A DNA stretch of 64,000 nucleotides. It comes from Candidatus Bipolaricaulota bacterium (GTDB lineage: Bacteria; Bipolaricaulota; Bipolaricaulia; UBA7950; UBA9294). The notes beneath the pieces were generated by a model, which worked only from the letters and a program-made list of their open reading frames with translations, was not told where the DNA came from and made no database searches. Location: assembly GCA_028277345.1 (NCBI GenBank), contig JANQGM010000006.1, positions 110,535-174,534 of the forward strand, written 5' to 3'. Below, piece after piece: positions 1,459 through 20,778 of the stretch. The translations under genes were made by a program, and so were the position numbers. Each line of letters begins with the position of its first letter. Position 1 is the stretch's first letter.

Positions 1459-1571
1459 CGATGCAATCGAGATTAGCCAGAAGAAGTCCAAGAAACCCGT
1501 AAACCAATTGCTGTGATGAACTGCGGGGGATTCCCGGTTCGCAGGTTTCAATCAGACGGTCTGTTTTATTT

Positions 1572-3965: not shown

Positions 3966-4052
3966 GTGGAGCTTGGCGAAGATAGGATTTCGTTCGCACG
4001 GACAGTAATACATATCAAGATGGCAATGCACCTACAAGCAATGATCTGGCAC

Positions 4053-5007: not shown

Positions 5008-6066
5008 TCATGCGAGCAGGATTTTGCAGGCACGCAGGATCGACAAGCTAACCCAAAGCTGAAGCTCTCTCGTCTTGGCGTTCTCGGCCGCCTTGTGGAT
5101 CTTGGAATAGGAGTGTTTCCACAATCCCGACGACGTTTGATTCTCGACCAGCCAGTCCAAAGCTTGAGTAATTCGCGGGTGATCCAGCGTGAACCCGAGG
5201 AGAGACAGAGAATCCAATGCTGAAACGAGATCCGTCCACCAAAAGGGGTACTGGAACCGGAGCCAATTGTCGGGATGCTGATAGGACGAGTGATTGTTCC
5301 TCTTGAAGAGCGAATCCGCCAACAGCTGTCCCGCCTGCTTGGCTTCTGGAGACGTTGAGTAGAACGAATGCGTTACGAACCCCCGGATGACCATGCCTGT
5401 TCCCGCATGCCCAAACGGCTGATCGCGATCGAAATCTCTTCGAGTCCCGACAAACTGGGTCGTCAGCGCATCCCGCTCCTCGCGCGAGTAGGTGCCCATG
5501 CATCCCGGACTCCCGATCACCCAGCCGCCATCGTTTTGCCGCATCGACAGTAGCCAATTCATGGCAGCCTTTACCCGAGGATCGTCCTCATATCCCGAGC
5601 GGTTGAGGTTAGCCACGATGATGCCGTTGTAATACGGTGCGTATTGCTCGCCAATGATTCCGCGGATGTCGCCCTCGTCCGTTTGGCAAGAAAACAGATA
5701 CTCCGCCGCCCGCTCGATACAGGGGTGCGATCGATTCAATCCATATTGATTCACCAGGATGTTGGTGAATCGAAACGTTTCCAGGAGATCGTAGTTCTGT
5801 GCCGGATGCTTGGCCTTGTTCGCAGATTTCGACAGCCAATGTCCGTCGGCGGTTTGCCTCTTGATGATGTCCCGGACGTCGTCCAAGGCCCAGATCTCAG
5901 ATAGGTCCCGGACCGGCTCCTGAAGGAGATCCCTTCGCGTGAAGTAAATGACGGCAGGATTACCTGATTCCAACAATGGCGTCACGGGATCATATGCAAA
6001 ACACTTGACCCAACTGACTGCCGTCATGTTCAGTCCATCCTTTGAGACACAGTTGCCCCAATCCAT
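5008..6066 (-). CDS. prenyltransferase / squalene-cyclase-repeat (alpha/alpha toroid) protein
   Basis: Recurrent QW-type repeats: KRQTADGHW, SCQTDEGD, MRQNDGGW, ENQTSSGLW. About 350 aa, no signal peptide seen. Confidence 0.7.
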   Translation of the reverse strand: MDWGNCVSKDGLNMTAVSWVKCFAYDPVTPLLESGNPAVIYFTRRDLLQEPVRDLSEIWALDDVRDIIKRQTADGHWLSKSANKAKHPAQNYDLLETFRFTNILVNQYGLNRSHPCIERAAEYLFSCQTDEGDIRGIIGEQYAPYYNGIIVANLNRSGYEDDPRVKAAMNWLLSMRQNDGGWVIGSPGCMGTYSREERDALTTQFVGTRRDFDRDQPFGHAGTGMVIRGFVTHSFYSTSPEAKQAGQLLADSLFKRNNHSSYQHPDNWLRFQYPFWWTDLVSALDSLSLLGFTLDHPRITQALDWLVENQTSSGLWKHSYSKIHKAAENAKTRELQLWVSLSILRACKILLA

Positions 6067-6131
6067 GCTGTTTCGAGCAATCGGACGAGGGGCACCGCAG
6101 TCATTCTATCCGCAGCCTCTGTCGTCAACCT

Positions 6132-6824
6132 TCACACGACGTTCGAAGCCTCGTTCGGAGTTGGAGCAGCTGTTGCGGCAGGCGGCTTTCGCACCAGTGT
6201 CAAGGGATGCTGCTCGTCCTTCTCGACGTACTGCTCGCCGTATCCGTGTCCAAGGATTCGTTCCCGAACGATCTCGAACCCTACACCCTCAAGCAGTTCC
6301 ATGGTGTCCGAGAAGCTCAGCTTGCTCCAGTACATGTCATTGCCGAAGAAATCGTGCTTGATATAGGGTTCAGTCCTATCCTTTGTCAATGAAACCAAGA
6401 AATACCCGCCCGGGCGCAGCCACGCCCAGACTCTCTCAAACAGCCGACCGTGCTCATCTCTTGGCAGATGGAACAGCATGAAGATGGCGACGACTGCATC
6501 GTACGCATTCTCAGCCAGCACAAGGCCGGAAACGTCACCAAGCTCAAATCGGGCCTCCGGAACATTGACTTCGGCCAACCTGACCATCGCTTCCGAGATA
6601 TCGACGCCGGTCACGCGATAGCGCTCCGATAGCGCGCGAGCAATAGGAACACCAGCACCGCAACCAAGATCGAGAACCGCCGATCCTTCGGGAAGCACCC
6701 CAAGGAGGGGAATGATCTGATCAGCATCATCTTCCGCTCTTCGGGGTGCATAGACATCTGCACAGGCATTGTACCCATCGCGCACAATCGCCTTGGGATC
6801 GATTCTCTGAGTGATGCGCTCCAT
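6132..6824 (-). CDS. class I SAM-dependent methyltransferase
   Basis: Motif I VLDLGCGAGVPIA, motif II/III AIFMLFHLP, LRPGGYFLV. Start moved to ATG 6824 (MERITQ), which has AAGGAG 8 nt upstream. The ORF-track start 6950 would overlap the GNAT gene. Confidence 0.85.
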   Translation of the reverse strand: MERITQRIDPKAIVRDGYNACADVYAPRRAEDDADQIIPLLGVLPEGSAVLDLGCGAGVPIARALSERYRVTGVDISEAMVRLAEVNVPEARFELGDVSGLVLAENAYDAVVAIFMLFHLPRDEHGRLFERVWAWLRPGGYFLVSLTKDRTEPYIKHDFFGNDMYWSKLSFSDTMELLEGVGFEIVRERILGHGYGEQYVEKDEQHPLTLVRKPPAATAAPTPNEASNVV

Positions 6825-6903
6825 CGCGGCGTCTCCTTTCGCCCTCGCCAGTTGCTCAGGCATAGACGAAGGAGTGTATGGTACTCGTGTTGCCTCCCAC
6901 GGC

Positions 6904-7557
6904 TCACGGTCTGCCAGGATTCCACACCATTTCCCAGTTTGGCAGGCCAATCAACGGAAGATCGATTCTCTCGACCACCTTGAATCCAAAGTGCTCGTAC
7001 ATCGATACGTTGTCTTCGCTTCCCGCTCCGACATACAGAGGCAGGTCCATCTGCTCCGCGTTTTGGATTGCAGCACGGACCAGTTGCCCGCCAAAGCCTT
7101 TGCCCCGGTGTCGATCGGGAACGCCAAGCACGAGTAGATAGAGGAAATCCATGCCCGCGAGATGCTGGTTCCGATACTCGGTGACGGGTTTGAATGCGTC
7201 TCCAGCCTTCTTCGCGACACGCCCTCCCATTCTCGTCGCGGCGCTCAAGCCTCCGATCCGAAAGAGTTGCCACACTCCGAGATCGAGATGCGCTCCGGGA
7301 ATCCACGCAACGATCCCCTCAAGCTCCGCTGACGTGGCAACCGCTTCACCGTAGGCCAGCGCTTGGCGAAGCGGGATCTCGAAGATGGCTCGTCGCCTTT
7401 TGTCAGTGTTCGATTCTCCATCGCAAATCGCACTCCAGATGGGATCGTTCTGAAAAGCATCAGCAAGAATGCGGGAAGCTCTCTGGATATCCGCCTTCTG
7501 AATCGGGTACAGCATCTCCATCTCCTCACTCTCAGCATCATCGGCGATGCGCGACAA
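6904..7557 (-). CDS. GNAT family N-acetyltransferase (intact copy)
   Basis: Motif A LLVLGVPDRHRGKGFGGQLVRAAI. 217 aa. About 85-90 percent identical by eye to the 4053..4693 copy. Confidence 0.85.
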   Translation of the reverse strand: MSRIADDAESEEMEMLYPIQKADIQRASRILADAFQNDPIWSAICDGESNTDKRRRAIFEIPLRQALAYGEAVATSAELEGIVAWIPGAHLDLGVWQLFRIGGLSAATRMGGRVAKKAGDAFKPVTEYRNQHLAGMDFLYLLVLGVPDRHRGKGFGGQLVRAAIQNAEQMDLPLYVGAGSEDNVSMYEHFGFKVVERIDLPLIGLPNWEMVWNPGRP

Positions 7558-7744
7558 TCACTTTAGCAGCCATCGATCGCATGTCGTTCCCATAAGCGGG
7601 ATGGTTCATGGGAACGCGCCGTTGAGAACGCCACGGATCAACCGAAAAACACCTAACCCTTAGCAGCTCTAACATCACTCGACAGATGCCGTGCTCCAGT
7701 ATTCGAAGTCATCCGACTGCAGCTGAACCCAGGTATCCGAGCCT

Positions 7745-7880
7745 CCCGCCAATCTCTTCCGTGAGATAGCCGATGTTTCGGAACAGATCCTTCGCAAACT
7801 GCTACTCGGAATCGAGTTCCTTATAGGAATTCTGGAGGTCACGAATGCATGGATTCTCTTCTGGCCGTCGCTTCACTCTT
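7745..7880 (-). pseudogene. decayed N-terminal remnant of a MazG-like gene
   Basis: DNA aligns with 15560-15700 and 12780-12900. Translation ...ENPCIRDLQNSYKELDSE*QFAKDLFRNIGYLTEEIG carries an in-frame TAG and lacks the C-terminal half. Confidence 0.6.
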
Positions 7881-8038
7881 AAGCACTCTCCCTGCAATCA
7901 ATCTGGCTAACTATATCCGGAACGCTTTAGTGAGGTTCCACGCATCCTCCGGCGCAAGCTCTCTGCTCATGCACTTGTGAATTAGGTATATGTCCCCCGG
8001 AGTTTTGCATTTGTCACATCAATTGGGTCGGTTGCCTA

Positions 8039-8067
8039 TTGAACGACCTGCTATTCTGTGTTACTAT
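8039..8067 (+). promoter_or_regulatory. putative sigma70-type promoter of the PadR operon
   Basis: TTGAAC-17 nt-TACTAT, 48 nt upstream of ATG 8115. Confidence 0.35.
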
Positions 8068-8114
8068 ATACCGGTAGTGAGTATTGCTTAATAGCATGGA
8101 AAGAGGATTTTGAG

Positions 8115-8441
8115 ATGGAAAACCTTACGGAAATGCTCAAGGGGATCTTGGAAGGCTGTGTCCTCGAAATAATCAGCCACGAGGAAATCTATGGCTACGA
8201 AATCACTCGGCGCCTGAACGCTCTCGGTTTTTCGGACGTTGTGGATGGAACAACCTATACGATCTTGATCCGGCTTGAGAAAAATGAGCTCGTAGACATA
8301 GAAAAAAGGCCATCCGATATGGGACCACCAAGGAAATTCTACACGCTCAGCAATGCGGGACGCCAGGAACTCCGACACTTCTGGGAAAAATGGGAGTTCA
8401 TTGCGTCAAAAATCAGCGAATTAAAGGAGAGGCATTCATGA
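8115..8441 (+). CDS. PadR family transcriptional regulator
   Basis: LEGCVLEIISHEEIYGYEITRRL...DGTTYTILIRLEKNELV winged-helix pattern. Start at ATG 8115 with AAGAGGA upstream. Confidence 0.85.
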   Translation: MENLTEMLKGILEGCVLEIISHEEIYGYEITRRLNALGFSDVVDGTTYTILIRLEKNELVDIEKRPSDMGPPRKFYTLSNAGRQELRHFWEKWEFIASKISELKERHS

Positions 8442-8800
8442 GAAATCCAATTACGTATTTCAAATACATCGCTCAGGAGAAGCGCAGGTACAAACACATG
8501 CTAGCCCGCGCCAAAGCGTTGCCAGAGGAATACGCTTTCATGTTCGACAAGATTCAACAGTACATGTGGATTCATGCGGCGGGCGACGGCATGGGGATGA
8601 TATCGATTCTCAGCGGTTTGCTTGATCTGTTTGAGGCAGGCGTGACAGAAGGCAAACGCGTCCTCGAAATAACAGGTGCTGACGTAGCCACGTTCTGCGA
8701 TGAGCTTTTGCGTAACACGAAAACGTGGACCGCAGACTGGCAAAAGGCATTGAATCGCGACGTCAGAAGGAAACTCGAACGGGAGAGCGATTTCAAATGA
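8438..8800 (+). CDS. DUF1048 domain protein (usual PadR partner)
   Basis: ARAKALPEEYAFMFDKIQQYMW...LLDLFEAGVTEGKRVLEITGADVATFCDELL. ATGA overlap with the PadR stop. Confidence 0.7.
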   Translation: MRNPITYFKYIAQEKRRYKHMLARAKALPEEYAFMFDKIQQYMWIHAAGDGMGMISILSGLLDLFEAGVTEGKRVLEITGADVATFCDELLRNTKTWTADWQKALNRDVRRKLERESDFK

Positions 8801-9570
8801 CTGATTTAGCGATACGTACAAAGGGATTGAAAAAGTCGTATCAGACGGCAGAAGTCCTAAAAGGCGTTGACTTCGATGTGCAGCGCGGCGAGGTTTTCGC
8901 CCTGCTTGGCTCGAACGGAGCAGGGAAGACGACGATCATAAGAATTCTCGTCACTTTGTTGAGGCCCGACGGGGGCACGGCATCTGTGAGTGGCTTTGAT
9001 GTTTCGAGAGCACCCGAAAAAGTACGGCAGTCAATCAGCTTAACCGGGCAATTTATCGCTGTGGATGAGGTGCTGACCGGACGGGAAAACCTGCACATGA
9101 TTGCTAGGCTACGCCATCTCGATGACCCTCGCGGTATCGTCGAGAAATTGCTAGAACGCTTCGGGCTAACAGACGTCGCTGATCGCAAAGCGGGAATGTA
9201 TTCAGGCGGAATGAAACGCAAGCTTGACCTTGCCATGAGCCTTGTGGGTAACCCCTCGGTGGTCTTCCTTGATGAGCCTACGACGGGGCTTGATCCGGAA
9301 GCACGCCGTGAGGTTTGGGAAATGATAAAAGAGCTCGCGAACATCGGCACTACGGTTTTTCTGACTACTCAATACTTGGAGGAGGCTGAAAAACTCGCGG
9401 ATCGAGTTGCGATATTGCATGAAGGCCGAATTATCGTTGATGCGACGCTTTCAGAGCTGAGAAAACCTCTCCCACCCACCCAAGTCGAATATGTGGAAGC
9501 CCAACCGACACTGGAGGAGATCTTCCTGTATATAACCGGAAAGGAAGTGAGCAAGAAGGGAGGAAACTAA
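8797..9570 (+). CDS. ABC transporter ATP-binding protein (DrrA/ABC-2 type exporter)
   Basis: Walker A GSNGAGKTT, signature YSGGMKRKL, Walker B VVFLDEPTTGLD. ATGA overlap with the upstream gene. Confidence 0.9.
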   Translation: MTDLAIRTKGLKKSYQTAEVLKGVDFDVQRGEVFALLGSNGAGKTTIIRILVTLLRPDGGTASVSGFDVSRAPEKVRQSISLTGQFIAVDEVLTGRENLHMIARLRHLDDPRGIVEKLLERFGLTDVADRKAGMYSGGMKRKLDLAMSLVGNPSVVFLDEPTTGLDPEARREVWEMIKELANIGTTVFLTTQYLEEAEKLADRVAILHEGRIIVDATLSELRKPLPPTQVEYVEAQPTLEEIFLYITGKEVSKKGGN

Positions 9571-10341
9571 ATGGAAACGAGATACTTCTTCAGTGACATG
9601 AGCATAATGTTGGGGCGTTCCATGCGGCATATCTTTCGCAGTATGGACACTATCTTCACGGTCGCTATCACGCCGCTCGCGCTGATGCTCTTGTTCGTTT
9701 ACGTGTTCGGCGGTGCGATTCAGTCAGGGGTGGATAATTACGTGAACTATCTGCTACCAGGTATCCTTCTCATTACCATTGCCAGCGGCATCGCATATAC
9801 GGCGTATAGGCTGTTTCAAGATGTGCAAAGGGGGATATTCGAACGGTTCCATTCCATGCCAATCGCTCACTCAGCCGTTCTGTGGGGACATGTTCTGACA
9901 TCACTGGTTTCGAATGCGATTTCGATTGTTCTTATCTTGCTTGTCGCGCTGTTGATGGGGTTCCGTTCGCCTGCCGGTGTATTGTCATGGCTTGCCGTGA
10001 TCGGAATACTCGCACTTTTTACCTTGACACTGACCTGGATTGCCACTATCGCTGGACTATCGGCAAAAACCATTGACGGAGCGAGCGCATTTTCGTATCC
10101 GCTTATACTTCTCCCCTTTATCAGCTCGGCCTTCGTACCGACAGATACGATGCCTACCATTGTTCGGGTTTTCGCAGAACATCAACCGGTAACTTCGATC
10201 GCAGACGCTATACGTGCGCTGCTGTCGAACCAGCCAGTCGGGAACAACCTCTGGATTGCCGTCGCGTGGTGTGCCGGAATCATGGCTGTAGCGTATGTCT
10301 TTGCCATGAGGGCGTATAAACGTCGAGTACTAGGCCGTTGA
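9571..10341 (+). CDS. ABC-2 type transporter permease
   Basis: Six hydrophobic segments. Abuts the ATPase gene (stop 9570, ATG 9571). Confidence 0.85.
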   Translation: METRYFFSDMSIMLGRSMRHIFRSMDTIFTVAITPLALMLLFVYVFGGAIQSGVDNYVNYLLPGILLITIASGIAYTAYRLFQDVQRGIFERFHSMPIAHSAVLWGHVLTSLVSNAISIVLILLVALLMGFRSPAGVLSWLAVIGILALFTLTLTWIATIAGLSAKTIDGASAFSYPLILLPFISSAFVPTDTMPTIVRVFAEHQPVTSIADAIRALLSNQPVGNNLWIAVAWCAGIMAVAYVFAMRAYKRRVLGR

Positions 10342-10738
10342 TCAGTCTTATGCCAGAGATATGCTCAGAATCGTTCATTCAGTTCTAAGCTTGCGTTTAT
10401 TCGAGAATAGTAACCCGCATAGCATCGTTACACTTCCAGTGCCCTTCAAATTGCTGACGATATCCGTGTGAAGTTGATCGCCGTACACCCCATCGAGAAC
10501 TCGATGGCACATCAATCGAGACCTAAATCTAGGCAGTCAACCTATGATTAGTGTGCAAACTTCCGGGATAGCACAAAAGTGCTCTCCTCTCTGATTTCCT
10601 GCAACTTAACCGCCATCATCTTGGCTTGTCGTTGCCAAGTTACACCATTCCGCAACCGATCAGCTGATGATAGCCCTCGCAAAGGAGACATAATTGTCGA
10701 GTGAATCGTTTCCGCCGCCGTTCAACTGCAGCCGCTGG

Positions 10739-10975
10739 CTAGGTCGCACTTTCGTCAGTGGACTGTACATCGCGGTACTCAACCCTGACAGTCAAATGAG
10801 GTTTGATGCCGGATAGCGCAGGCAAAAGGTGGTTCAGCACCTGCTCAGCAGTCGCTCGAAATTCGCGTCCTTGGGTGCTGACTTTAACCCAGCCCTGGCC
10901 GTCACGGTAATACCGCTCCGTGGCGTTTGCTGTATCAATCAGGATGACGTAGCTGTCATTGGTAAGCTTCATCAC
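10739..10975 (-). CDS. hypothetical small protein (cassette-like ORF)
   Basis: 78-aa ORF. GTTAGGA lies 7 nt upstream of its ATG, and the stop is embedded in CCTAGC. No recognisable family. Confidence 0.45.
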   Translation of the reverse strand: MMKLTNDSYVILIDTANATERYYRDGQGWVKVSTQGREFRATAEQVLNHLLPALSGIKPHLTVRVEYRDVQSTDESAT

Positions 10976-10982
10976 GATTGCA

Positions 10983-11053
10983 TCCTAACGCTTGAGTTCA
11001 GCGGCGACAAAGCCGCGTAGCGAGTTTGCCGTCCGACTGCACGATTTGCTAGG
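10983..11053 (-). other. candidate attC-like recombination site
   Basis: Minus strand GCCTAGCAAATCGTGCAGTCGGACGGCAAA-loop-TTTGTCGCCGCTGAACTCAAGCGTTAGGA. An imperfect palindrome with bulges, ends resembling R'' (CCTAGC) and R' (GTTAGG). It sits exactly between two minus-strand ORFs. Confidence 0.35.
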
Positions 11054-11405
11054 CATCAGTATGCTTGATGTTGGTTGTGCCGCCGAACGATAGTTTGTTT
11101 CCATCTGGGTCAAGATAAGTTACCTTGCATATTTCATTCGGGAAAAACTCTCGGCTACCAACCTCCAAGCCGCGCTGCGCAATAGCCTCTATCGTTGATT
11201 CCAGAGATTCGACCATCTGCATGAGAATTGCGTGTCCAGCGTGTTCTGGAGCCAATACGATGTATACATACTGATGATCAGCGAGCTTCCACACTGCTTC
11301 CGTTTCATGCGGGGAAAAATCCGGTTTCCTCCCGAATATAAGCTCATACCAGCCAAGAGATCTCTGGAAGTCAGTGACTGGCACACCAGAGAAGAGATCG
11401 CTCAT
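11049..11405 (-). CDS. VOC / glyoxalase-bleomycin resistance family protein
   Basis: 118 aa, VTDFQRSLGWYELIFG...VTYLDPDGNKLSF. GTTAGGC lies 7 nt upstream of the ATG. Confidence 0.8.
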   Translation of the reverse strand: MSDLFSGVPVTDFQRSLGWYELIFGRKPDFSPHETEAVWKLADHQYVYIVLAPEHAGHAILMQMVESLESTIEAIAQRGLEVGSREFFPNEICKVTYLDPDGNKLSFGGTTNIKHTDA

Positions 11406-11549
11406 CTTTGATGCCTAACCATGAATAGTGTGCAGACATACGGTAACGAGCTAGAAAATTCCATCTCTGATTTTCTATGAATAGAACGCGACACCTTTAA
11501 TTCCCCCCTCTGTATTGGCGTTGATATTCTCGCATGCCATGCTCCTATC

Positions 11550-11745
11550 ATGATACTTCTCGATCAAGTTTACTCCGCATTCTCCACTAAGCACTACTCC
11601 CCACGGGCGGAGGATGCGTATGTGCAATGGATTGATAGATCTTTGCAGTTCCACCCACAAGCAAGAAGGGATGGATTCTTCCTCGTGACATAACGGCAGA
11701 GCACGTGAAGTCGTTTCTCACAGACCTTGCTGTCCATCGCCACTC
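11550..11745 (+). pseudogene. truncated, frameshifted integron-type tyrosine recombinase (N-terminal SAM-like domain only)
   Basis: Own translation: MILLDQVYSAFSTKHYSPRAEDAYVQWIDRSLQFH, stop at 11691. A shifted frame then gives ILPRDITAEHVKSFLTDLAVHR. Compare IntI-type ...[33 protein letters not shown]...EVEAFLSWLANERKVS. The catalytic domain is absent; the sequence is cut where the amidohydrolase gene ends. Confidence 0.6.
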
Positions 11746-11749
11746 CTGG

Positions 11750-12541
11750 TCATGTCTCCATTGGAAGCGATGTTCGTGTGTGCTCGCGCAAGAATCGCAA
11801 CGGATTCTCCCACGCAATCCTGCTGAGATCAGTTTCGCTGAATCCCAAAGATTGGAAAGCCATGAGCGCATCGTCAAACGAGAACTCAGGATAGTCGCTT
11901 CCCCACAGAAGCCGATCCTCAGGGACTAGATCGAGAAGCCACTTGAAGTGAGGCGCATAGGTGCTATTCGCGAACACGTTCTGTGTGGCCGAGGTATCGA
12001 AGTAGAGATTGTCAGGGATGCCATGCTTGAGCCAAACGGAAAGCTGCAGAAACTGAGGGCCTCCCGAGTGAACCATGACGACGGGAAGTTCGACCTCGTG
12101 TGCGAAAAGCGCAGTCTGGAGCGGAATGCCAAGATCGGAGTCCGTGACCGGACTCGAATGCACTTGAATGATCCATGGCTTGCTCTTGATACGCTCGATC
12201 ACAGGACCGATCACAGAACGATAGTCCGATCCAACGAAGCTGTTCGGATAGATCTTGATCCCGATGATGTTCGGGTTATCCCCGAACTGCTCAATGTCCT
12301 CTATCCCTTCCGCGAGATTCTGACCATAGACATGAAGCAGGCCCTTAAACCGGCTATCGTGCTCGGTGACGGCGCGATCGAGTGTTTCAGCAGGCAGGCC
12401 GTGCGCGACGATGCCAAGTTCGATTCCCGACTGATCCATCAAGCCCAGGGTTGTGCTCACATGCTTCCGGAATTCATCACTCCAGGAATCGTCGACCCCA
12501 TCCTTCGAGAGGTGCATATGACTATCGATCATGCGCTTCAC
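11750..12541 (-). CDS. amidohydrolase-2 family metal-dependent (TIM barrel) hydrolase
   Basis: N-terminal MIDSHMHL metal-binding motif, internal VHSS/VMVHSGG, C-terminal LLWGSDYP. Confidence 0.8.
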   Translation of the reverse strand: MKRMIDSHMHLSKDGVDDSWSDEFRKHVSTTLGLMDQSGIELGIVAHGLPAETLDRAVTEHDSRFKGLLHVYGQNLAEGIEDIEQFGDNPNIIGIKIYPNSFVGSDYRSVIGPVIERIKSKPWIIQVHSSPVTDSDLGIPLQTALFAHEVELPVVMVHSGGPQFLQLSVWLKHGIPDNLYFDTSATQNVFANSTYAPHFKWLLDLVPEDRLLWGSDYPEFSFDDALMAFQSLGFSETDLSRIAWENPLRFLREHTRTSLPMET

Positions 12542-12563
12542 TCCACGCCACCTCCCATTGCGC

Positions 12564-12926
12564 TCATTCCGAAGCTTCGTCAGTTCTCCAAGATCGATCG
12601 AGATTCTTCTCCATCTTGGTCAGATAAGCACTCTGCAGATCGACCTCAGCATAGTTCGCAAGCTTGAGGATGTAGGCAAGGCAATCGGCGAGTTCCTCGC
12701 CGACATGCGCTCTGGCACGCTCAATGTCGTTGGATTCAGACGCTCGTTTCAGTGCACGCGCCGCCTGGACCACCTCACCAACCTCTTCCGTGAGATATGC
12801 GATATTTCTGAACAGATCTGTGTCAAACTCTTTCTCGGAATCGAGCTCTTCGTGGAATGCCTGCAGATCTCGTAAACGTTCGGTATCTACCAATCTTGCA
12901 TTCAATCCCCAATACACCTCGTACAT
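12564..12926 (-). CDS. MazG-like nucleotide pyrophosphohydrolase domain protein
   Basis: LTEEVGEVVQAARAL...VGEELADCLAYILKLAN (EExxE / EExxD metal-binding helices). Paralogue of 15365..15736. Confidence 0.75.
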   Translation of the reverse strand: MYEVYWGLNARLVDTERLRDLQAFHEELDSEKEFDTDLFRNIAYLTEEVGEVVQAARALKRASESNDIERARAHVGEELADCLAYILKLANYAEVDLQSAYLTKMEKNLDRSWRTDEASE

Positions 12927-13036
12927 TCGAAAGTTCTTTGCTGCCGAGTAGAGCTAGCTGATCAACTGCGGCCAGTGCTTTGGCGGCTTCATCACAAACC
13001 TACTTCTAAACAAGCAGTCAGTCTTTGGTGAACCAA

Positions 13037-13450
13037 CTACCAAACGTGCTTGCACACCTTGCATCTGCGATCTTTGTAAAGCAAGAGCCAAAGGGGATTA
13101 GCCGTTAGAAGGCACAACAAGACAATCACACTACGGAACAGAGTATTTCGATTGATCTCCTGAGATTGACAGGCTGGGCACTGAGATTCAATGTGCTCCC
13201 GATATCGCATTTGCTTTTCGTAATACCCATCGAGAACCCTCTTCGCATGCTCGTAATCAGAGCTGTCAACTAGGAGCTTCACACCCCCTATCGCGGGTGA
13301 GTAGAGAGGTTGAATGGCTACAGTATGTTCATCAACCAACTCAGAATGGATGTTCTCGCCTTCAAGATACAGTTTCGCTAATCGCGCGTCTATCGGCTCT
13401 CTAAAAGCCCCTGCTATGATTTGATTCTTCTGAATAGCCATATCCATCAA
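13037..13450 (-). CDS. DUF2007-like protein with C-terminal CxxC...CxxC and a TM segment
   Basis: N-terminal half resembles the putative signal-transducing DUF2007 fold (ARLAKLYLEGENI...VDSSDYEHAKRVL). Then CPACQS, a hydrophobic helix, and CKVCKH. Confidence 0.55.
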   Translation of the reverse strand: MMDMAIQKNQIIAGAFREPIDARLAKLYLEGENIHSELVDEHTVAIQPLYSPAIGGVKLLVDSSDYEHAKRVLDGYYEKQMRYREHIESQCPACQSQEINRNTLFRSVIVLLCLLTANPLWLLLYKDRRCKVCKHVW

Positions 13451-13675
13451 CTGTCGTTGCCCTTGACCCTCTTTTTTTGCAATGCTCCGCCTTTACAATC
13501 CTTTTCTCATATATTAGCATAAATGCCCGAACACCGCCGGATTCAGACACACCTAACACTCACCGACGAATCCACAACCATTGTGTGGAGCGCCCGTGCA
13601 GTAGCTCGTGCAGACAAGGTGGGGATTCAACCTGAATCCAAGCAGGCTAACTATTCACAGATCTGCAGATGAAGT

Positions 13676-13845
13676 GTCATTGGCTTTCACGCGACGCATA
13701 GTTGCAATCCGCGCGGCTGAAGGAGGGATATGCGCAAACGACACATGGTTCTGGGGGCAAGTGGGCCGATCGCCGCCTACAAGGCGGTCGAGGCGGCGAC
13801 CAAGCTCGTTGGCGAAGCCTCGTTCCGAGACATCCCAGATTTGTC
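13676..13845 (+). pseudogene. displaced copy A of the coaBC promoter plus 5' coding end
   Basis: TTGGCT(13680)-17-TGCAAT(13703), GAAGGAG, ATG 13730. Translates MRKRHMVLGASGPIAAYKAV/EAATKLVGEASFR with a 54-bp internal deletion relative to 18688..., then a stop. Confidence 0.7.
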
Positions 13846-14017
13846 CTATCGGTATGTGTACGCCCCCAAGTAGTCGCCGAGCGCGCTGGCAACGTCCCCG
13901 CCAACCGTCATCCTTGCTCTGCCTTGGGTGGCCACTTTGCCGCACGGAGGTTCTGCGGTTGCGCCGCGAGATAGGTCTTCCTATAGTGGTTGGCCGATAG
14001 ACGGAGGAACCAGGAGT

Positions 14018-15181
14018 ATGGCGCAAAAACGCATCACTTCAATCGATATCATGAGAGGCCAGATGATTGCGTTCATGGCTCTCGACCACGCCGGGGTGTT
14101 TCTATTTCGCGGTCTGCACGACACATCGGAAGCCTGGGATATAGCGGTTCGGGTTCACCCTTCATTCGTTTCGTTTCTAACGCGCAACCTCTCGCACCTC
14201 TCGGCTCCAGGGTTCGCGTTGCTACTTGGAGTATCCTTCGCGATGTTCGCGAGATCACGCAAAAGCCGTGGCTGGAGCGATGTCCGGATCGCCCGTTTCT
14301 ACGCAACTCGCGGTCTCCTGCTCATCGCCATCGAGCAACTCGTGGTGAATCCGGCATGGCTGCTGCAATTCCTTCCGCGAACGCCCGACTGGACGTTGGC
14401 TTCGTCAGCCGCATCGGACGTATCCGGCGTATTCCTCGCGTTCGGAATCCTCTCTACCCTTGGCATAGCCATGGTGCTCTGGTCGTTCTGCCGAAGTCTG
14501 GCATCGTGGGCAGTCGCCATCCTTTCGGCAGCGGCGATATTGACGACATCGATTTTCATCCCGGCGATTGATCAGGCTGGAACGACGTTTCATCCGCTCT
14601 ACACGCTTTTTGTATTGAACGGAATATCGCCGCCTCTCTCGGCGAGCTTCCCGATTCTCCCGTGGTTTGGAGTGGTCGGTCTCGGAATCCTCCTCGGTCG
14701 ATGGATGCTCAAGGAAACATCGAATCATCCGCGTGGATTTCTTCTAGCTGGCCTCGTTTCGCTGTCGCTATTCGTCGTGATCCGATCGATAGGTGGATTC
14801 GGTAACATTCACCCGCCGTCGGGCGGATTCTACGCATTCTTCGCACTCACCAAGTATCCGCCAAGCCTGGTGTTTCTACTGCTCTACCTTGGACTCAACT
14901 TGATCGTACTCGCCGGCTTGAGCTATGCGTTTGACCAACGCCGAACCGGCGGAGGCATTCTCAAGAGCTTCGGCTCATCGTCGCTCTTCTTCTACGTTGT
15001 TCATCTTTATGTCTATGGCATCCTGGGAATCGTGGTGTGGGTCGTCACCCCGTTCCCGCGCGGACTCATCTGGGTCTATCCATTCTGGTTTCTCGGCCTG
15101 GCGCCACTCTACTTCGCCTGTCGCGGCTACCGTAGCTTCAAAGAGTCGCGAAGCCCTAACTCTATCTGGCGAATGTTGTAG
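14018..15181 (+). CDS. DUF1624 / heparan-alpha-glucosaminide N-acetyltransferase-like membrane acyltransferase
   Basis: RITSIDIMRGQMIAFMALDHAGVF N-terminal signature, followed by about 10 hydrophobic segments. Start moved to ATG 14018 (GGAGGAACCAGGAG upstream). Confidence 0.75.
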   Translation: MAQKRITSIDIMRGQMIAFMALDHAGVFLFRGLHDTSEAWDIAVRVHPSFVSFLTRNLSHLSAPGFALLLGVSFAMFARSRKSRGWSDVRIARFYATRGLLLIAIEQLVVNPAWLLQFLPRTPDWTLASSAASDVSGVFLAFGILSTLGIAMVLWSFCRSLASWAVAILSAAAILTTSIFIPAIDQAGTTFHPLYTLFVLNGISPPLSASFPILPWFGVVGLGILLGRWMLKETSNHPRGFLLAGLVSLSLFVVIRSIGGFGNIHPPSGGFYAFFALTKYPPSLVFLLLYLGLNLIVLAGLSYAFDQRRTGGGILKSFGSSSLFFYVVHLYVYGILGIVVWVVTPFPRGLIWVYPFWFLGLAPLYFACRGYRSFKESRSPNSIWRML

Positions 15182-15364
15182 CCCGCTGGATGATCCCACG
15201 GTAGATTGGCCCGGATAAAGCTCTCCCTTTCGACTGCCTACAGTACTGTCCCCACCGACCAAGGCGTCTGAATCGGGATTCCGCAAAAAGCGCAGCCGCT
15301 GCCTTGTCGAGCAATGGCCATTCGCTTCGTCTCTGCTGAGAAGTCGCCGCGCCTGCTCATGTCG

Positions 15365-15736
15365 CTATCTCCACGATCGATCGATGTTCTGCTTCATCTT
15401 CGACAGATAGGCTCTCTGAAGATCGACTTCGGCATAGTTCGCGAGCTTGAGAATGTAAGCGAGGCAGTCGGCAAGCTCTTCACCAACATGTGCCCTGGCA
15501 CACTCAATGTCGTTGGATTCGGACGCTCGTTTCAGTGCACGCGCCGCATGGACCACTTCGCCAATTTCTTCTGCCAGATACGCGATGTTCCGAAACAGAT
15601 CGGTGTCGAATTGCTTCTCGGAATCGAGTTTCTCATGGAAAACCTGGAGGTTACGAATGCATGGATTCTCTTTTGGCAGTCTCTTCACTCTCACATACCC
15701 TCCTGCGTCAAGTTCTAGCCATGTCTCTGGGAACAA
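15365..15736 (-). CDS. MazG-like nucleotide pyrophosphohydrolase domain protein
   Basis: LAEEIGEVVHAARAL...VGEELADCLAYILKLAN. About 85 percent identical by eye to 12564..12926. Confidence 0.75.
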   Translation of the reverse strand: MFPETWLELDAGGYVRVKRLPKENPCIRNLQVFHEKLDSEKQFDTDLFRNIAYLAEEIGEVVHAARALKRASESNDIECARAHVGEELADCLAYILKLANYAEVDLQRAYLSKMKQNIDRSWR

Positions 15737-15841
15737 CCTGACGTATCCCAGTCATCACCCGATCCTAGGTCCCGCCACTCACGCACAGGCGGATTTGAGG
15801 GATATGCTCCCGGAATCCCCACCGAACTCCACCAAGAGCCT

Positions 15842-16735
15842 CTACTCATTGTCGTTACCTTCTTCATATTCGATATCCAACAGCGAACTAGGAAGATCGA
15901 TGGGGAGAGACTTCGGGGAGGGAGGCAGTTCGACGCGCAAAATCCGTGCAATGCCTTTCCTAATGGCCTTGGCGAGCATGTCAGCATGAAGGCGAAATTT
16001 CCTCAAGTCAGCAGCATCCAAATCACTACGTGCATGTGCGAGGTCAATCCGGCTTTCGTAGACCTCTTCGGCACTGGCCCTGTCATAGCCTAGGATATCG
16101 CTTAATAAGTGAGTGACACGCTCTCTCAATCCGGGCCCAATTTTCTCTTCCCAACCGCAATTCTTGCATATGCGCACCCTCCCAGGGGCCCCGGTTTCTA
16201 TGCCGGCTAGTAAATCGAGCGCATTGTTGAAGGCAATCAATCGATCGATGCCATCGTCAGAACTCAGACCTCTCGCCCACCACCTGATCACACGCATGGT
16301 TTTCGCGTCGACATCAAGTGAGAGCCATTTGGCAGAAAGTTGAGCAGAGTCAACAACACCCTTAGCTTTCATCGCACCAGCAATAAAGCGATATTTCGGA
16401 GGCGAATCAGCGATTCGTCGCTTTAAACTGACCCCTCCGCGAACCCGTACTGGCCAACCTAAACTGAGCGTGGCAAGAGCGACAATCTTGTCAACAAGGT
16501 CCTTACCGCGTTCGTAGATCAAGTGTGGTTCTAGAGGTCCATCCGTGTTGTTGTCTATCGATATCACTGCTTCGAGTTTGTGAACTCCTGTCCACTCTGA
16601 GCTAGGCCCAAACTCGGGAGAGATCTCAAGACGCCGTACTCCCTCAACAGGCGGTGACGTAGAATCGAGTTGCTCGTCGACGATGAAAAACTCCCCCTGC
16701 AACTTTGCATGCACAATCCACTCCTCTGTTGACAC
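15842..16735 (-). CDS. hypothetical protein, 297 aa, with CxxC and an Rx4H (HEPN-like) motif
   Basis: Long ORF with coding-like composition. RICKNCGWEE, then ESRIDLAHARSD in a helical C-terminal part. No family recognised. Confidence 0.6.
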   Translation of the reverse strand: MSTEEWIVHAKLQGEFFIVDEQLDSTSPPVEGVRRLEISPEFGPSSEWTGVHKLEAVISIDNNTDGPLEPHLIYERGKDLVDKIVALATLSLGWPVRVRGGVSLKRRIADSPPKYRFIAGAMKAKGVVDSAQLSAKWLSLDVDAKTMRVIRWWARGLSSDDGIDRLIAFNNALDLLAGIETGAPGRVRICKNCGWEEKIGPGLRERVTHLLSDILGYDRASAEEVYESRIDLAHARSDLDAADLRKFRLHADMLAKAIRKGIARILRVELPPSPKSLPIDLPSSLLDIEYEEGNDNE

Positions 16736-17035
16736 ATCTCCTCCCCTACACTTATTTGGGCCAATTGCTCAGCTGTGGACTGTTCCATCCTATGGATTAT
16801 CCGTTCTGTCCGCAATCCGATCCATCTTCAGCCCTCACTCGCTGTGGAAAGTAGATCTCGCGATACTCGAAGGGATTCAGTCGCACAACAGAGATCAGGC
16901 TTTGAACCATACGGCGCAAACACATCCTGAGCCCCAAACTAGAGGTTTCCACGCGCATATCCACAACCTGAGCGTCAGGTGAATAGGTCTGCGCGATGTC
17001 TCAAATCGCTTGTACGAAATCGCGGTGCATTGGCT

Positions 17036-17159
17036 TCAGATCCTTCCCCCGATACAATCCGCGCGGCTGAAGGAGAGACACGCACGAACGTCACGTAGTT
17101 CTGGGAGTGAGTGGGGCGGTCGCCGCTTACAAGGCAGTGAATTTGGCCAGCAAGCTGAC
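17036..17159 (+). pseudogene. displaced copy B of the coaBC promoter plus 5' coding end
   Basis: TTGGCT(17040)-17-TACAAT(17063), GAAGGAGAGAC. The start codon is mutated to ACG. Matches coaBC to ...AAYKAVNLASKLT, then diverges at 17160. Confidence 0.7.
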
Positions 17160-17314
17160 AGTCGGTTCAGAAGACATGCGATCTTTATAGGCAATCCATC
17201 CCACACAGATAATCAGCTGGGGAAACCTGACTGACAGTCATGACACCATTCCTCTCTCGCAGTCATGTGGCTAGCGCTTCTCAGACCAGTGCATCATCGT
17301 GAAATTCCCAACAA

Positions 17315-17343
17315 TTGACTTGTTCGAGAGATTCTTGTAAATT
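17315..17343 (+). promoter_or_regulatory. putative promoter of the second DUF4143 ATPase
   Basis: TTGACT-17 nt-TAAATT in an AT-rich stretch, 45 nt upstream of ATG 17389. Confidence 0.3.
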
Positions 17344-17388
17344 AAATATTGAATGTTGAATTTACGCGACCGACAAGGAGGAACCAAT

Positions 17389-18585
17389 ATGCTGCCACGA
17401 ACACTTGAGTCTGTGATTCGTCAGGCGGCCCGACGCTATCCTGTGGTAACACTGACGGGGCCCCGACAATCGGGCAAGACCACGCTTGCCCAGATGGCAT
17501 TCCCTAACTACGCCTATGTCGGCTTGGAGGACCTAGATCAGCGGGAGTTCGCGACCTCCGATCCTCGAGGCTTCTTGTCGCAGTTCGACGGTCCTGTCAT
17601 CCTCGATGAAGCACAACGAACCCCCGAGTTATTCTCGTATATCCAGACACGGGCCGATGCGTCTGGCAAGAATGGCCAATTCGTGCTCACAGGCTCACAA
17701 AGCTTCCTGCTCATGAAATCCATCAGCCAATCCTTGGCGGGAAGAGCGGCCATCCATCATCTCTTGCCGTTCTCACAGGCTGAATTGCTGGGGCGCGAGA
17801 CGATCCCAAAGGGGCAGATTGGCACGTCCATTCCTCGTGCGCATCGGTCCGCGAAGAATTCATTGATGGAGACGCTGTTCACAGGCAGCTATCCAAGGAT
17901 TCACAACACGAAAGTTCCACCTCAGGACTGGCTGGCCAATTACTACCGCACCTACGTCGAGCGCGACGTACGCGAACTCCTGAATGTGGGGGACCTCGAA
18001 ACCTTCGGAAGGTTCATCGGCCTGTGCGCAGGCAGGACAGGGCAGCTCTTGAATCTATCTTCTTTATCGAACGATTGCGGGGTCTCTCAGCCAACTGCGC
18101 GACGTTGGATGTCCGTTCTGGAGGCAAGCTTCCTGGTTTTCCTCTTGCGCCCGCACCATCGCAATTTCAACAAGAGGCTCGTCAGGAGTCCGAAGCTATA
18201 CTTCATCGATTCCGGCCTACTCACCTATCTCCTGCGTATTCGATCGTCAGAGGAGCTGTACAACCACTCTGCACGCGGTGCAATCTTCGAGAGTTTCGTG
18301 ATATCCGAATTGCTCAAGAGGGCACTCCACCGCGGGCAGGAGCCAAATCTCTACTTCTGGAGGGATTCCACAGGACACGAGATTGACGTCCTGCTCGACC
18401 ACGGCAGCGCCCAGATCCCCATTGAGATCAAGTCCAGCGAAACACTCGCAAGCGATTTCTACAGAGGCTTGAGGTACTGGCTTGATCTTGCAGCATCCCC
18501 AGATGGCGCCGCCGCACTGATCTATGGCGGCGATCAATCCACGCTTCGAGAGGGCATCGCCACCTACTCGTGGAGGGAATTGTAG
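17389..18585 (+). CDS. AAA+ ATPase, DUF4143 / COG1373 family
   Basis: Walker A GPRQSGKTT, Walker B VILDEAQ, C-terminal GHEIDVLLD...IEIKSS. Start at ATG 17389 with CAAGGAGGAA upstream. Confidence 0.85.
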   Translation: MLPRTLESVIRQAARRYPVVTLTGPRQSGKTTLAQMAFPNYAYVGLEDLDQREFATSDPRGFLSQFDGPVILDEAQRTPELFSYIQTRADASGKNGQFVLTGSQSFLLMKSISQSLAGRAAIHHLLPFSQAELLGRETIPKGQIGTSIPRAHRSAKNSLMETLFTGSYPRIHNTKVPPQDWLANYYRTYVERDVRELLNVGDLETFGRFIGLCAGRTGQLLNLSSLSNDCGVSQPTARRWMSVLEASFLVFLLRPHHRNFNKRLVRSPKLYFIDSGLLTYLLRIRSSEELYNHSARGAIFESFVISELLKRALHRGQEPNLYFWRDSTGHEIDVLLDHGSAQIPIEIKSSETLASDFYRGLRYWLDLAASPDGAAALIYGGDQSTLREGIATYSWREL

Positions 18586-18630
18586 CGCCCTCCCTGACAC
18601 GGCGAAGTAAAGTCCAAATGGGATGTGGCT

Positions 18631-18659
18631 TTGGCTTTCGCGCGCCGCGTAGTTACAAT
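18631..18659 (+). promoter_or_regulatory. putative sigma70-type promoter of coaBC
   Basis: TTGGCT-17 nt-TACAAT, 29 nt upstream of ATG 18688. The same element is conserved in copies A and B. Confidence 0.45.
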
Positions 18660-18687
18660 CCGCCCGGATCGGAGCAGAAGGAGAGAC

Positions 18688-19884
18688 ATGCACGAACGAC
18701 ACGTAGTTCTGGGAGTGAGTGGGTCGATCGCCGCCTACAAGGCGGTGGATCTGGCCAGCAAGCTGACGCAGGCGGGAGTCGCCGTTCATGTCGTGATGAC
18801 CGAGGCGGCCACCAAGCTCGTCGGCGAAGCCTCGTTTCGCGCCATCACAGGCTATCCCGTGTCCACCAGCATGTTCGAGTTGACCAATCCTCACTCCATC
18901 GAACACATCTCCCTCTCCGAAATCGCTGACCTGTTCTTGATTGCACCGGCCACAGCCAATGTGATCGCCAAGGTCGCTGTCGGACTGGCCGATGACCTTC
19001 TCACGTGCACGGCACTGGCGACGCGTGCGCCCATCCTCATTGCGCCCGCCATGCACACGGCGATGTGGGAGAATGCGGCAACCCAAGCCAATGTGAAGAC
19101 GCTGCGAGAACGCGGTGTCGGGTTCGTGGGTCCTGACGAAGGGCGCCTCGCCTCGGGAGGTTACGGTGCCGGGCGGTTCGCGCCAGTTCCTGACATCCTC
19201 GGCGAGGCACACAAGCTCCTTGGAGCCAACGGGGATTTGGCGAGCAAGAAGCTCGTTATCACGGCAGGGGGCACGCGCGAAGCCATCGATCCCGTCCGCT
19301 TCCTCGGCAATCGCTCGACCGGCAAGATGGGAGTTGCCTTGGCCAAAGCAGCACGAGATCGGGGCGCGGATGTAACGCTGATTTCGGGACCGACAGATCG
19401 CTCAACGCCAACGGGAATGAATGTGATCCCCATTACATCCGCTGATGACATGTTGCGGGCCGTTCAAGACGCCTCGCCGGAGGCAGACGCCCTCATCATG
19501 GCGGCTGCGGTCGCAGACTATGCGCCAGCCAAACCGTCTCCTGAGAAGCTAAAGAAGGAAGATGGACCGCTCTCGATCGATCTGGAGCGAACGATCGACA
19601 TCCTCGATTCCGTTCGCAACGTTCCCGTACGGGTGGGGTTCGCGGCAGAATCGCAGGACCTGCTGGAGAACGCCGCACAAAAGCTGGACGCCAAGGGCCT
19701 CGATCTGATCGTCGCCAACGACATTTCGCGACCGGACATCGGATTCGCTTCGGACCACAACGCATGCACGTTGATTGATCGATCAGGCAGCATCGAAAAC
19801 ACCCCTATCCTCAGCAAGCGCGAGGTCGCGAATCACATCCTCGATCGCGTCGTCGGATTGCTGGATCGTGCAGCGGCAAAGTAG
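18688..19884 (+). CDS. coaBC: bifunctional phosphopantothenoylcysteine decarboxylase / phosphopantothenate-cysteine ligase
   Basis: VVLGVSGSIAAYKA flavoprotein N-terminus, PAMHTAMWEN, then ligase half ITAGGTREAIDPVRFLGNRSTGKMG...AAAVADY. Start at ATG 18688 with GAAGGAGAG upstream. Confidence 0.9.
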   Translation: MHERHVVLGVSGSIAAYKAVDLASKLTQAGVAVHVVMTEAATKLVGEASFRAITGYPVSTSMFELTNPHSIEHISLSEIADLFLIAPATANVIAKVAVGLADDLLTCTALATRAPILIAPAMHTAMWENAATQANVKTLRERGVGFVGPDEGRLASGGYGAGRFAPVPDILGEAHKLLGANGDLASKKLVITAGGTREAIDPVRFLGNRSTGKMGVALAKAARDRGADVTLISGPTDRSTPTGMNVIPITSADDMLRAVQDASPEADALIMAAAVADYAPAKPSPEKLKKEDGPLSIDLERTIDILDSVRNVPVRVGFAAESQDLLENAAQKLDAKGLDLIVANDISRPDIGFASDHNACTLIDRSGSIENTPILSKREVANHILDRVVGLLDRAAAK

Positions 19885-19890
19885 GCGGCC

Positions 19891-20778
19891 ATGACACAAC
19901 CCACTCTCGCCTTCATCGGAGCCGGAACTCTGGGCACGGCGCTCGCGTACGGCGCCACCGCTGCCGGATACACGGTTACAACGATCTTCAGCCGTGACTT
20001 CGAAGATGCCAAGCGATTGGCGGATCCCCTGCCCAAGGCCACGGCGGCATCGTCGATACATGAGGTCGTTTCGGCAGACCTCATCTTCCTCACCGTGCCC
20101 GACGATGAGATCATGGCGGCCTGCAAGAGCGTCCATTGGCGATCCGGATCCTACGTCGTGCATTGCAGCGGAGCCCTTTCGCTGGAGGCTCTGGAGTCCG
20201 CGGCGGCGCGTGGAGCCAAGACAGGAAGCCTACATCCTCTGCAAACGTTTGCTCGCGGGGAACAGCAAGTCGCCCGCTTGGCTGACATTGCCTACGCCAT
20301 CGAAGCCTCCGACGGCTCCATCCGCAGGATCATGGAGGAGTTCGTTCGCGACCTCGGTGGACGATCTCAGTGGATTCGTGGAGCAGACAAGCCGCTTTAC
20401 CACGCCAGCGCAGCGATGGCGTCCAACTACTTAGTCGCTCTGCTTGGGGATGCTTCGAAGCTGTGGGAGACCTTTGGCTTGACCCGAGAGCAAGGCATGC
20501 ACTCGTTGCTGCCGCTGGTAAAGGGAACGCTGGACAACCTTCAGGGCATCGGGTTCCCGGACGCGCTCACCGGCCCCATTGCCCGAGGCGATGTCGAGAC
20601 CGTGGAGATCCATTTGCGAGCCCTAAAGGACTCGCAGCCGGACATCATCCCCTCCTATGTCGCCATGGGCAAACGCACGATCGCGATGGCACTGGAGAAG
20701 GGAACGTTGGCCGTGGAATCCGCCGAAGCCATCGTGCAACTCCTGGATGCAGCCGAAGGAAGGGAGACGGCATCATGA
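19891..20778 (+). CDS. Rossmann-like plus DUF2520 domain protein (candidate ketopantoate reductase)
   Basis: N-terminal LAFIGAGTLGTALA dinucleotide fold. C-terminal LTGPIARGDVETVEIHLRAL typical of DUF2520. Sits between coaBC and panB with an ATGA stop/start overlap to panB. Confidence 0.75.
   Translation: MTQPTLAFIGAGTLGTALAYGATAAGYTVTTIFSRDFEDAKRLADPLPKATAASSIHEVVSADLIFLTVPDDEIMAACKSVHWRSGSYVVHCSGALSLEALESAAARGAKTGSLHPLQTFARGEQQVARLADIAYAIEASDGSIRRIMEEFVRDLGGRSQWIRGADKPLYHASAAMASNYLVALLGDASKLWETFGLTREQGMHSLLPLVKGTLDNLQGIGFPDALTGPIARGDVETVEIHLRALKDSQPDIIPSYVAMGKRTIAMALEKGTLAVESAEAIVQLLDAAEGRETAS

Follow-up and report, generated by a model that had tools for sequence, protein, structure and literature searches.

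Several integrative elements are known to insert into a conserved gene and to restore the end of that gene, among them SXT/R391 in the 5' end of prfC and phages 21 and e14 in icd. Accretion of elements without an integrase is likewise known from the cis-mobilizable elements (CIMEs) next to integrative and conjugative elements (ICEs) at fda in Streptococcus thermophilus and from the tycheposon satellites in Prochlorococcus islands. For the orphan C-terminal tips of Rhs and contact-dependent inhibition (CDI) systems, and for the effector-immunity arrays that belong to type VI secretion systems (T6SS), homology-facilitated illegitimate recombination (HFIR) has been proposed as the origin (Jackson 2009 and Kirchberger 2017, PMC5361080; for the process, de Vries & Wackernagel 2002 and Prudhomme 2002, as cited in PMC5361080). 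Here, we describe an arrangement at the 5' end of coaBC in a 64,000-nt stretch of DNA (the window) from a Candidatus Bipolaricaulota bacterium (assembly GCA_028277345.1, contig JANQGM010000006.1, positions 110,535 to 174,534). The promoter and 5' end of coaBC are present in the window as three direct copies, namely A (13680-13838), B (17030-17159) and C, the live gene (from 18631). We consider it probable that the promoter and first codons of coaBC survive in A and B as non-functional stubs, the scars of successive insertions where a conserved core operon of coaBC and pantothenate genes meets a hypervariable island, and that these stubs arose by an HFIR-type displacement of the 5' end.

The copies were compared by self-BLAST with the C region, which matched B at 17053-17159 (85% over 114 nt, E 9e-33) and A in two parts, 13671-13806 (78%, E 2e-28) and 13789-13838 (88%, E 1e-12); no further coaBC 5' copy was found across the 64 kb. 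In addition, the pattern TTG-N20-TACAATCCG, searched with at most 1 mismatch, had exactly three sites (13680, 17030 and 18631) where 0.2 were expected. The triple direct repeat that an earlier note had read from the sequence alone is thus borne out, with significant similarity in formal alignment. The live gene (18631-19884, plus strand) has the promoter TTGGCT-N17-TACAAT (18631-18659), a long leader and an ATG at 18688, and its coding region extends from 18688 to 19884 according to Pfam. The counterpart of this ATG in B is ACG (17080). Copy A lacks 54 nt (codons 21-38) with the frame kept and ends in a TAG stop (13871-13873), so that its coding remnant (13730-13873, plus strand) consists of 47 codons: coaBC codons 1-20 and 39-54, unrelated codons and the stop. 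A 21-nt leader, CAATCCGCGCGGCTGAAGGAG, is common to A (13705-13725) and B (17055-17075), with all 18 of 18 aligned positions identical, whereas the leader of C is 7 nt longer. All of these features, as well as the off-frame peptides in the open reading frames (ORFs) at 13702, 17010 and 18570, had been described correctly in the earlier note. Its statement that B matches C from the -35 box onwards had to be revised: the -35 box and spacer of B agree with C at only 13/25 positions and are not homologous, and true homology between B and C begins at the -10 box. The promoter of A agrees with that of C at 21/25 positions, and the promoter of B matches A and C at 11-13/25. From the ribosome-binding site to codon 20, identity to C is 61/67 (91%) for B and 56/67 (84%) for A, the most divergent copy.

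The triple arrangement is real and is not an assembler chimera. Logan contigs from runs SRR20820733 and SRR20820739 were 100% identical to the window over 13510-15596, spanning A and its junction, over approximately 15572-17201, spanning B and its junction, and over 17172-19208 and 17581-20325. One contig end does coincide with the repeat (L124 begins at 17172), as would be expected if strain variants with common coaBC 5' k-mers had been stitched together. Nevertheless, such an artefact has a negligible probability, because the A and B junctions are each crossed by independent contigs from the two runs at 100% identity; moreover, the three copies are 10-23% diverged from each other, and similar arrays were seen in unrelated metagenomes.

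The copies delimit two blocks of inserted DNA, E1 between A and B and E2 between B and C, and their order was read from comparison with relatives (coaBC loci of relatives are designated L with a number). L127, a TARA scaffold from a close relative, has an ATPase that is 93% identical at the amino acid level and E2 DNA that is 92% identical at the nucleotide level to those of the window. Its positions 1-232 match the DNA left of A (194/232 identical). In the window, this native flank and the native coaBC promoter, the left part of copy A, span 13458-13704 (plus strand; -35 TTGGCT at 13680, -10 TGCAAT at 13703-13708). The native promoter of L127 agrees with those of A and C at 25/29 positions each and with that of B at 16/29; the nearest relatives of the B promoter are the live promoters of L046 and L047. 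L127 then carries a single stub with the long form of the leader (25/29 to C) and codons 1-27 that match C at 70/80, B at 64/80 and A at 57/80 positions, followed by the junction known from B with the first part of E2 (49/50), then by the ATPase and the promoter of C. L127 is thus the window minus E1, that is, minus about 3.35 kb between the 21-nt leader copies. That it is a simple deletion product of a crossover between A and B was rejected, since its leader is long whereas those of A and B are both short; L127 is the earlier state. The comparison shows that E2, with its ATPase and codon-27 stub, came first and that E1 was placed later inside the existing stub, between the 21-nt leader copies.

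These results change both the limits and the target of E1. The earlier note had set the block at 13846-17035; E1 was inserted into a pre-existing stub and not into the live coaBC, and its true limits are the two leader copies, at about 13705/25 and 17055/75. The coding part of A and the promoter of B therefore belong to the insert, which begins with the left leader copy (13705-13725, plus strand), continues with the coding remnant of A and ends with a foreign promoter allele (TTGGCT-N17-TACAAT) and the right leader copy (together 17030-17075, plus strand). What remains of the old stub is the coding part of copy B (17076-17159, plus strand; 91% identical to C), which holds codons 1-27 and ends at the junction AAGCTGAC/AGTCGG. 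The mosaic of similarities agrees with such an insertion: the promoter of A is similar to those of C and L127, its leader is that of B, codons 1-27 of B are similar to those of C, and the coding part of A diverges most. The two leader copies around E1 both have the short, non-native form, a pattern that fits the double-crossover import of a cassette already flanked by a stub, or a crossover together with conversion, no less well than Campbell integration. Of the two successive Campbell integrations proposed before, the successive insertion of DNA carrying its own coaBC promoter and 5' piece is supported by L127, L054, L082 and L042, relatives in which the empty and intermediate states that had been called for were indeed found. 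A circle with a single crossover would be one possible route only, since the leaders fit a double crossover equally well.

The gene content that had been read for the blocks and coaBC was confirmed by Pfam. E1 carries a membrane acyltransferase gene (HGSNAT_cat/Acyl_transf_3; 14018-15181, plus strand), a MazG-like gene (MazG2; 15365-15736, minus strand) and the gene for a 297-aa protein of no family (orf297; 15842-16735, minus strand), which had no Pfam or PADLOC match and whose homologues are at most 59% identical; PADLOC gave no match for any E1 protein. Read-through into the acyltransferase gene from the promoter of A, and with it promoter capture by E1, is possible on sequence grounds: A keeps good hexamers, and neither a terminator-like nor another promoter-like site was found between A and the start at 14018. 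MazG2 is a paralogue of MazG1 (82% nt identical), which lies with a DUF2007 protein gene among the native genes upstream of A (12564-12926 and 13037-13450, both on the minus strand; Pfam). A third MazG-like gene is present as a truncated remnant at 7747-7879, and the three are about 81-82% identical at the nucleotide level; no fourth, older coaBC copy was found near this remnant.

E2 (17160-18620, plus strand) consists of a conserved leader of about 230 nt, a promoter of its own (17315-17343), the palindrome ACATTGAATGT and a DUF4143/AAA_14 ATPase gene (17389-18585; Pfam). This ATPase (ATPase2) is a full-length match to the PADLOC profile PDLC04790 (E 3e-109) of the PDC-S01 family, which PADLOC lists as a candidate defence gene, and only as a candidate. 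A second DUF4143/PDC-S01 ATPase is encoded at 1630-2874 (plus strand; E 9e-159 to the same profile); it is about 33% identical to ATPase2, and orthologues of it (67-69%) are also located upstream of coaBC in L008 and L069. The non-coding segment 17160-17388 is conserved in L127, L130, L128 and L043 and ends in the promoter TTGACT-N17-TAAATT and the palindrome that follows it, both conserved in six lineages. The palindrome lies at the likely transcription start and may be an operator. Furthermore, the stub promoters upstream of the ATPase are decayed in L043, L046 and L087. The capture of a coaBC promoter by E2, suggested previously, is unnecessary because the ATPase has its own conserved promoter and stub promoters have decayed.

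E2 is no private event of the present genome; it proved to be an old, horizontally moved arrangement whose left junction is common to several lineages. The order stub, ATPase, coaBC occurs in at least six other Bipolaricaulota lineages; it recurs in L043, L051, L087 (with a decayed stub, E 5e-10) and L129-L132, with orthologous ATPases 71-80% identical at the amino acid level, and the junction of B is found again in L127 and L129-L132. L046 is a remnant in which the stub and the ATPase promoter are kept and the ORF is lost. In L003, L074 and L088, the ATPase is located directly 5' of coaBC on contigs that end before any stub would be visible. Uninterrupted sites were also found: L051 1077-2260 holds an upstream gene, the promoter and coaBC up to codon 17 and aligns colinearly with L054 2471-3680 (78.5%) and with L082 (84%), where the same sequence runs into an intact coaBC. 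The stub promoter of L051 is 96% identical to the live promoter of L054, and its live promoter is of the L088 type. ATPase carriers are scattered across the CoaBC tree, and the identities of ATPase and CoaBC are incongruent (L069-L068, 92% versus 69%; L043-L087, 83% versus 69%; L051-L068, 78% versus 77%); the ATPase gene has therefore moved between lineages. Single vertical inheritance of the stub-ATPase2 unit was rejected on the basis of this incongruence and of the lineage-specific leaders that the stubs carry. In the L129/L130 lineage, the stub-ATPase unit adjoins Vsr, DNA methylase and GIY-YIG genes (L129 3156-5362), a restriction-modification-like neighbourhood that is in keeping with a defence-island setting.

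One junction common to diverged lineages, a patchy distribution and an incongruent phylogeny could also be produced by selfish homing, in which the ATPase would cut empty coaBC genes near codon 27 and repair from the carrier, with the stub and the live gene as arms, would copy the cassette. DUF4143, a domain of the PD-(D/E)XK nuclease fold, is assigned to the superfamily of that name (PMC3424549), and the family is very widespread and conserved: a protein search with the 398-aa product of 17389-18585 returned more than 7000 proteins at E <= 1e-100, and bins of Planctomycetota, Gemmatimonadota and Deltaproteobacteria encode proteins 62-65% identical to the ATPase, a degree of conservation that is unusual among accessory genes. 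We regard homing as very unlikely, since stubs of an equal type form with ATPase-free cargo (E1, L101 and L131), near homologues of ATPase2 are also located elsewhere than beside coaBC (L128, L068 and L069), and the family is listed among candidate defence genes. A broader proposal, which we hold to be doubtful, is that the stub-flanked DUF4143 (PDC-S01) cassette would be a recombinase-free mobile unit that carries its own arms to the start of a universally conserved essential gene (the left arm being the stub and the right arm the promoter with the coaBC 5' end) and spreads by homologous recombination across family-level divergence, possibly aided by its own nuclease cutting empty sites. If true, this would be a general route by which defence genes without mobility genes move between genomes.

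Stub formation is more general than the reading of a single sequence could show. In L101, a 279-nt duplicate (-117 to +161) ends at codon 54, as A does, and encloses a small basic ORF; three stubs follow one another in L131; the stub of L128 comprises promoter and leader only; and in L074 a tandem repeat of 135 nt terminates at the -35 box. Repeated truncated gene ends with different DNA between them and one intact copy were found in the window, L101, L131, L043, L051 and L087, and at the same site relatives have fewer fragments (one in L127) or none (L054, L082 and L042); 17 genome loci were without a duplicate. The end points observed are the -35 box in L074, codon 0 in L128, approximately codons 10-20 in L046, approximately codon 21 (third stub of L131), approximately codon 25 (second stub of L130), codon 27 (window B, L127 and first stub of L130) and codon 54 (window A and L101), so that break points are variable across loci. 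Stub and live gene carry different promoter alleles in both L051 and L101, and each allele is matched by live promoters of other genomes (96% and 80%). Live and stub promoters also differ between C and B of the window, and in all three cases the replacement gene end was thus supplied by the incoming element.

These promoter alleles also bear on the possibility that a unit of MazG, a second gene, the promoter and the coaBC 5' end was duplicated in tandem in situ with one break point in coaBC, the copies then diverging and some genes being replaced. MazG1 and MazG2 do lie in parallel positions left of A and B, the GNAT genes are doubled as well (4052-4681 versus 6903-7533, 92%), A and B are each nearer to C than to other sampled lineages, and the L074 repeat is in tandem. 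Against this, the promoter of B is unrelated to those of A and C, the stub and live promoters of L051 and L101 match live promoters of other genomes, and no second ATPase copy is present left of any ATPase stub. Moreover, when the cargo was compared with the DNA left of the first copy, only MazG was doubled; the genes at the second position (DUF2007 and orf297) are not paralogous, and the acyltransferase has no paralogue in the other unit. Duplication in situ is, on balance, quite unlikely.

The setting of coaBC differs sharply between its two sides. The nearest CoaBC proteins are 65-87% identical and all come from Candidatus Bipolaricaulota (Acetothermia) bins and related metagenome contigs. 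Downstream, the order coaBC, DUF2520 oxidoreductase gene and panB and panC homologues is kept in all relatives, whereas no gene content upstream of coaBC is conserved among them, and in a 72-sequence alignment homology ends sharply at the -35 box. The G+C content is 0.60-0.62 from 18.6 kb on and 0.47-0.58 before. The upstream 18 kb is an accessory mosaic of GNAT acetyltransferases, a methyltransferase, a C-N hydrolase, an amidohydrolase, MazG-like genes and the two DUF4143 ATPases, parts of which reappear 5' of coaBC in relatives. Within this mosaic, the doubled GNAT-like genes form a 630-nt direct repeat that brackets a squalene-hopene-cyclase-like gene and the methyltransferase; the left GNAT-like copy (4100-4693) had no Pfam match and may be damaged. 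Other short direct repeats in the window are 52360-52425 versus 53126-53189 (86%) and 51209-51321 versus 51422-51540 (71%). In L074, L087, L002, L048, L110, L003 and L059, the -35 box lies inside the loop of a perfect 13-15-bp hairpin (-50 to -15 of coaBC), whose arms vary among lineages yet remain complementary. The L011/L012 group has instead a G+C-rich hairpin ending at the -35 box, and the window has neither type.

No intact recombinase was found in E1 or E2 by Pfam and PADLOC on all block ORFs, in agreement with the earlier note. We also searched the window and 126 relative loci, including their ORFs, by tblastn and phmmer with an IntI1 query sequence, and found no intact integrase; only two remnants matched. 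One is an integron-integrase-like pseudogene in the window (11513-11743, plus strand), 2 kb upstream, which retains the N-terminal part only and matches the second remnant by tblastn and blastn as well as the profiles TIGR02249 (E 3e-4) and PF13495 (E 3e-6). It marks an old neighbour of coaBC and an edge of the flexible island. The second, L046 9337-9687 (TIGR02249, E 1e-21), has a stop and an internal deletion and lies directly upstream of the stub. IntI-like remnants directly adjoin the coaBC promoter on its upstream side in L046, L043, L101, L047, L002 and L064, and in several relatives these are short pieces of the intI 5' end; the ancestral order was therefore probably cassette side, intI, coaBC, and coaBC was probably once next to a chromosomal integron-type integrase in this clade. 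L046 also has a second copy of the promoter and initial codons of its intI remnant (8275-8430 versus 9211-9366, about 75%, at a spacing of 936 nt), with two small ORFs on the minus strand in between, and therefore the stub-forming process also acts at another island boundary. A literature search for Bipolaricaulota and integrons gave nothing usable.

These remnants bring in site-specific integration, in which E1 and E2 would be CIME-like elements without an integrase, mobilised in trans, for example by the decayed integron-type integrase, at an attachment site in the coaBC leader around the palindrome ATCCGSSCGGAT just after the -10 box. The 21-nt segment that is identical in A and B flanks E1 as such a core would, and a 12-nt palindrome is present at that leader position in live genes of relatives. 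We nonetheless judge this explanation unlikely. No one core is present at both ends of the two blocks, as A and B share the 21 nt while B and C, which flank E2, differ by the 7-nt indel, and stub ends spread from the -35 box to codon 54 instead of falling at one site. Furthermore, the IntI1-seeded searches gave no intact integrase of that type, and the attI site on which an integron integrase works lies 5' of intI, whereas coaBC is located 3' of that gene. Only truncated intI remnants, and no functional intI with an adjacent attI, were found, and a crude scan of our own without a covariance model gave 0 attC sites in window 1-19000 and in L046. A tRNA or other RNA gene as the target was excluded: Rfam (E <= 1, window 1-24000) gave only a weak RtT match at 9365-9481, taken as chance, and no tRNA is close to the site, the nearest being at 50 kb.

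Displacement of the 5' end, the explanation that we prefer, would proceed as follows. New DNA from a related genome would be anchored in the conserved coaBC by homologous recombination, and its other end would join illegitimately inside the resident promoter or the first approximately 55 codons. As coaBC should be essential (CoA biosynthesis), survivors would be expected only where the incoming DNA brings a complete promoter and 5' end, and the resident 5' end would be shifted upstream, truncated to a stub. A cassette with this stub at its left and the live gene at its right would then share homology on both sides with the coaBC 5' end of any relative, or with a further stub, and ordinary recombination could insert, stack or remove it or copy it into other genomes with no dedicated mobility enzyme. 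The landing of E1 in a stub, and not in the live gene, would illustrate this spread of cassettes. The order of events, the limits of the insert, the recurrence and the lack of a recombinase are shown by the comparisons above. The recombination enzymes, the illegitimate origin of the first junctions and the circular or linear form of the substrate are inferences from the pattern.

Several observations weigh against this mechanism. The end points of the stubs fall into clusters: several lineages have codon 27 and two have codon 54. Common ancestry of the junction explains the codon-27 cluster, but a preferred cutting site is possible. The stubs of L087, L046 and the window carry a leader specific to their own gene, which needs repeated re-insertion or gene conversion, two processes that are indistinguishable here. 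In addition, arms of about 100 nt at 80-90% identity recombine inefficiently. A donor of E1 was sought through homologues of orf297 and not found: the best non-self match was 59% identical, with homologues in unrelated contexts without MazG or coaBC; the pointers to an origin of E1 in a related genome are only the MazG1/MazG2 paralogy and the coaBC-like ends.

The locus provides natural before and after states in an uncultured phylum, namely L127 versus the window and L054/L082 versus L051. It also illustrates that truncated starts of housekeeping genes with intact promoter boxes in metagenome bins can be true recombination scars and not annotation noise. Many accessory and defence genes are found in chromosomal hot spots without a recognisable mobility gene, and the coaBC locus offers a concrete, testable route by which they may arrive there: if the start of a presumably essential gene is displaced, the cassettes that result would match one conserved gene start with both flanks.

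Compared with the systems described above, the coaBC locus is like the Rhs and T6SS arrays in that a conserved gene part is the recombination anchor, each arrival displaces the previous version and leaves strings of truncated fragments with varied cargo, no recombinase is involved, and arrays once formed are passed on by homologous recombination. It differs in that the 5' end and promoter are displaced upstream, whereas in those arrays the 3' tip is displaced downstream; that the anchor is a housekeeping gene of CoA biosynthesis and not a toxin gene; and that the cargo consists of unrelated accessory genes and not of alternative ends of one protein. With SXT/R391 and phages 21 and e14 it shares an insert that brings a replacement promoter or gene end and a displaced target fragment at the far end, but those elements encode an integrase and use one fixed core, whereas here no integrase was found and the end points are variable. 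As in the CIMEs and tycheposon satellites, several cargo blocks follow one another, repeats of part of one target gene enclose each block, and most blocks are without mobility genes; those elements rely on att sites and a resident or helper recombinase, neither of which was found at coaBC. Laboratory Campbell (insertion-duplication) integration of a non-replicating circle gives the same product, that is, a truncated 5' copy, the insert and an intact copy with its promoter, although a natural circle is hypothetical here and the leader pattern of E1 fits a double crossover equally. Taken together, the coaBC locus is best filed as the 5'-end displacement form of terminal-displacement arrays, located beside a decayed integron-like island and carrying a candidate defence gene in its cargo.

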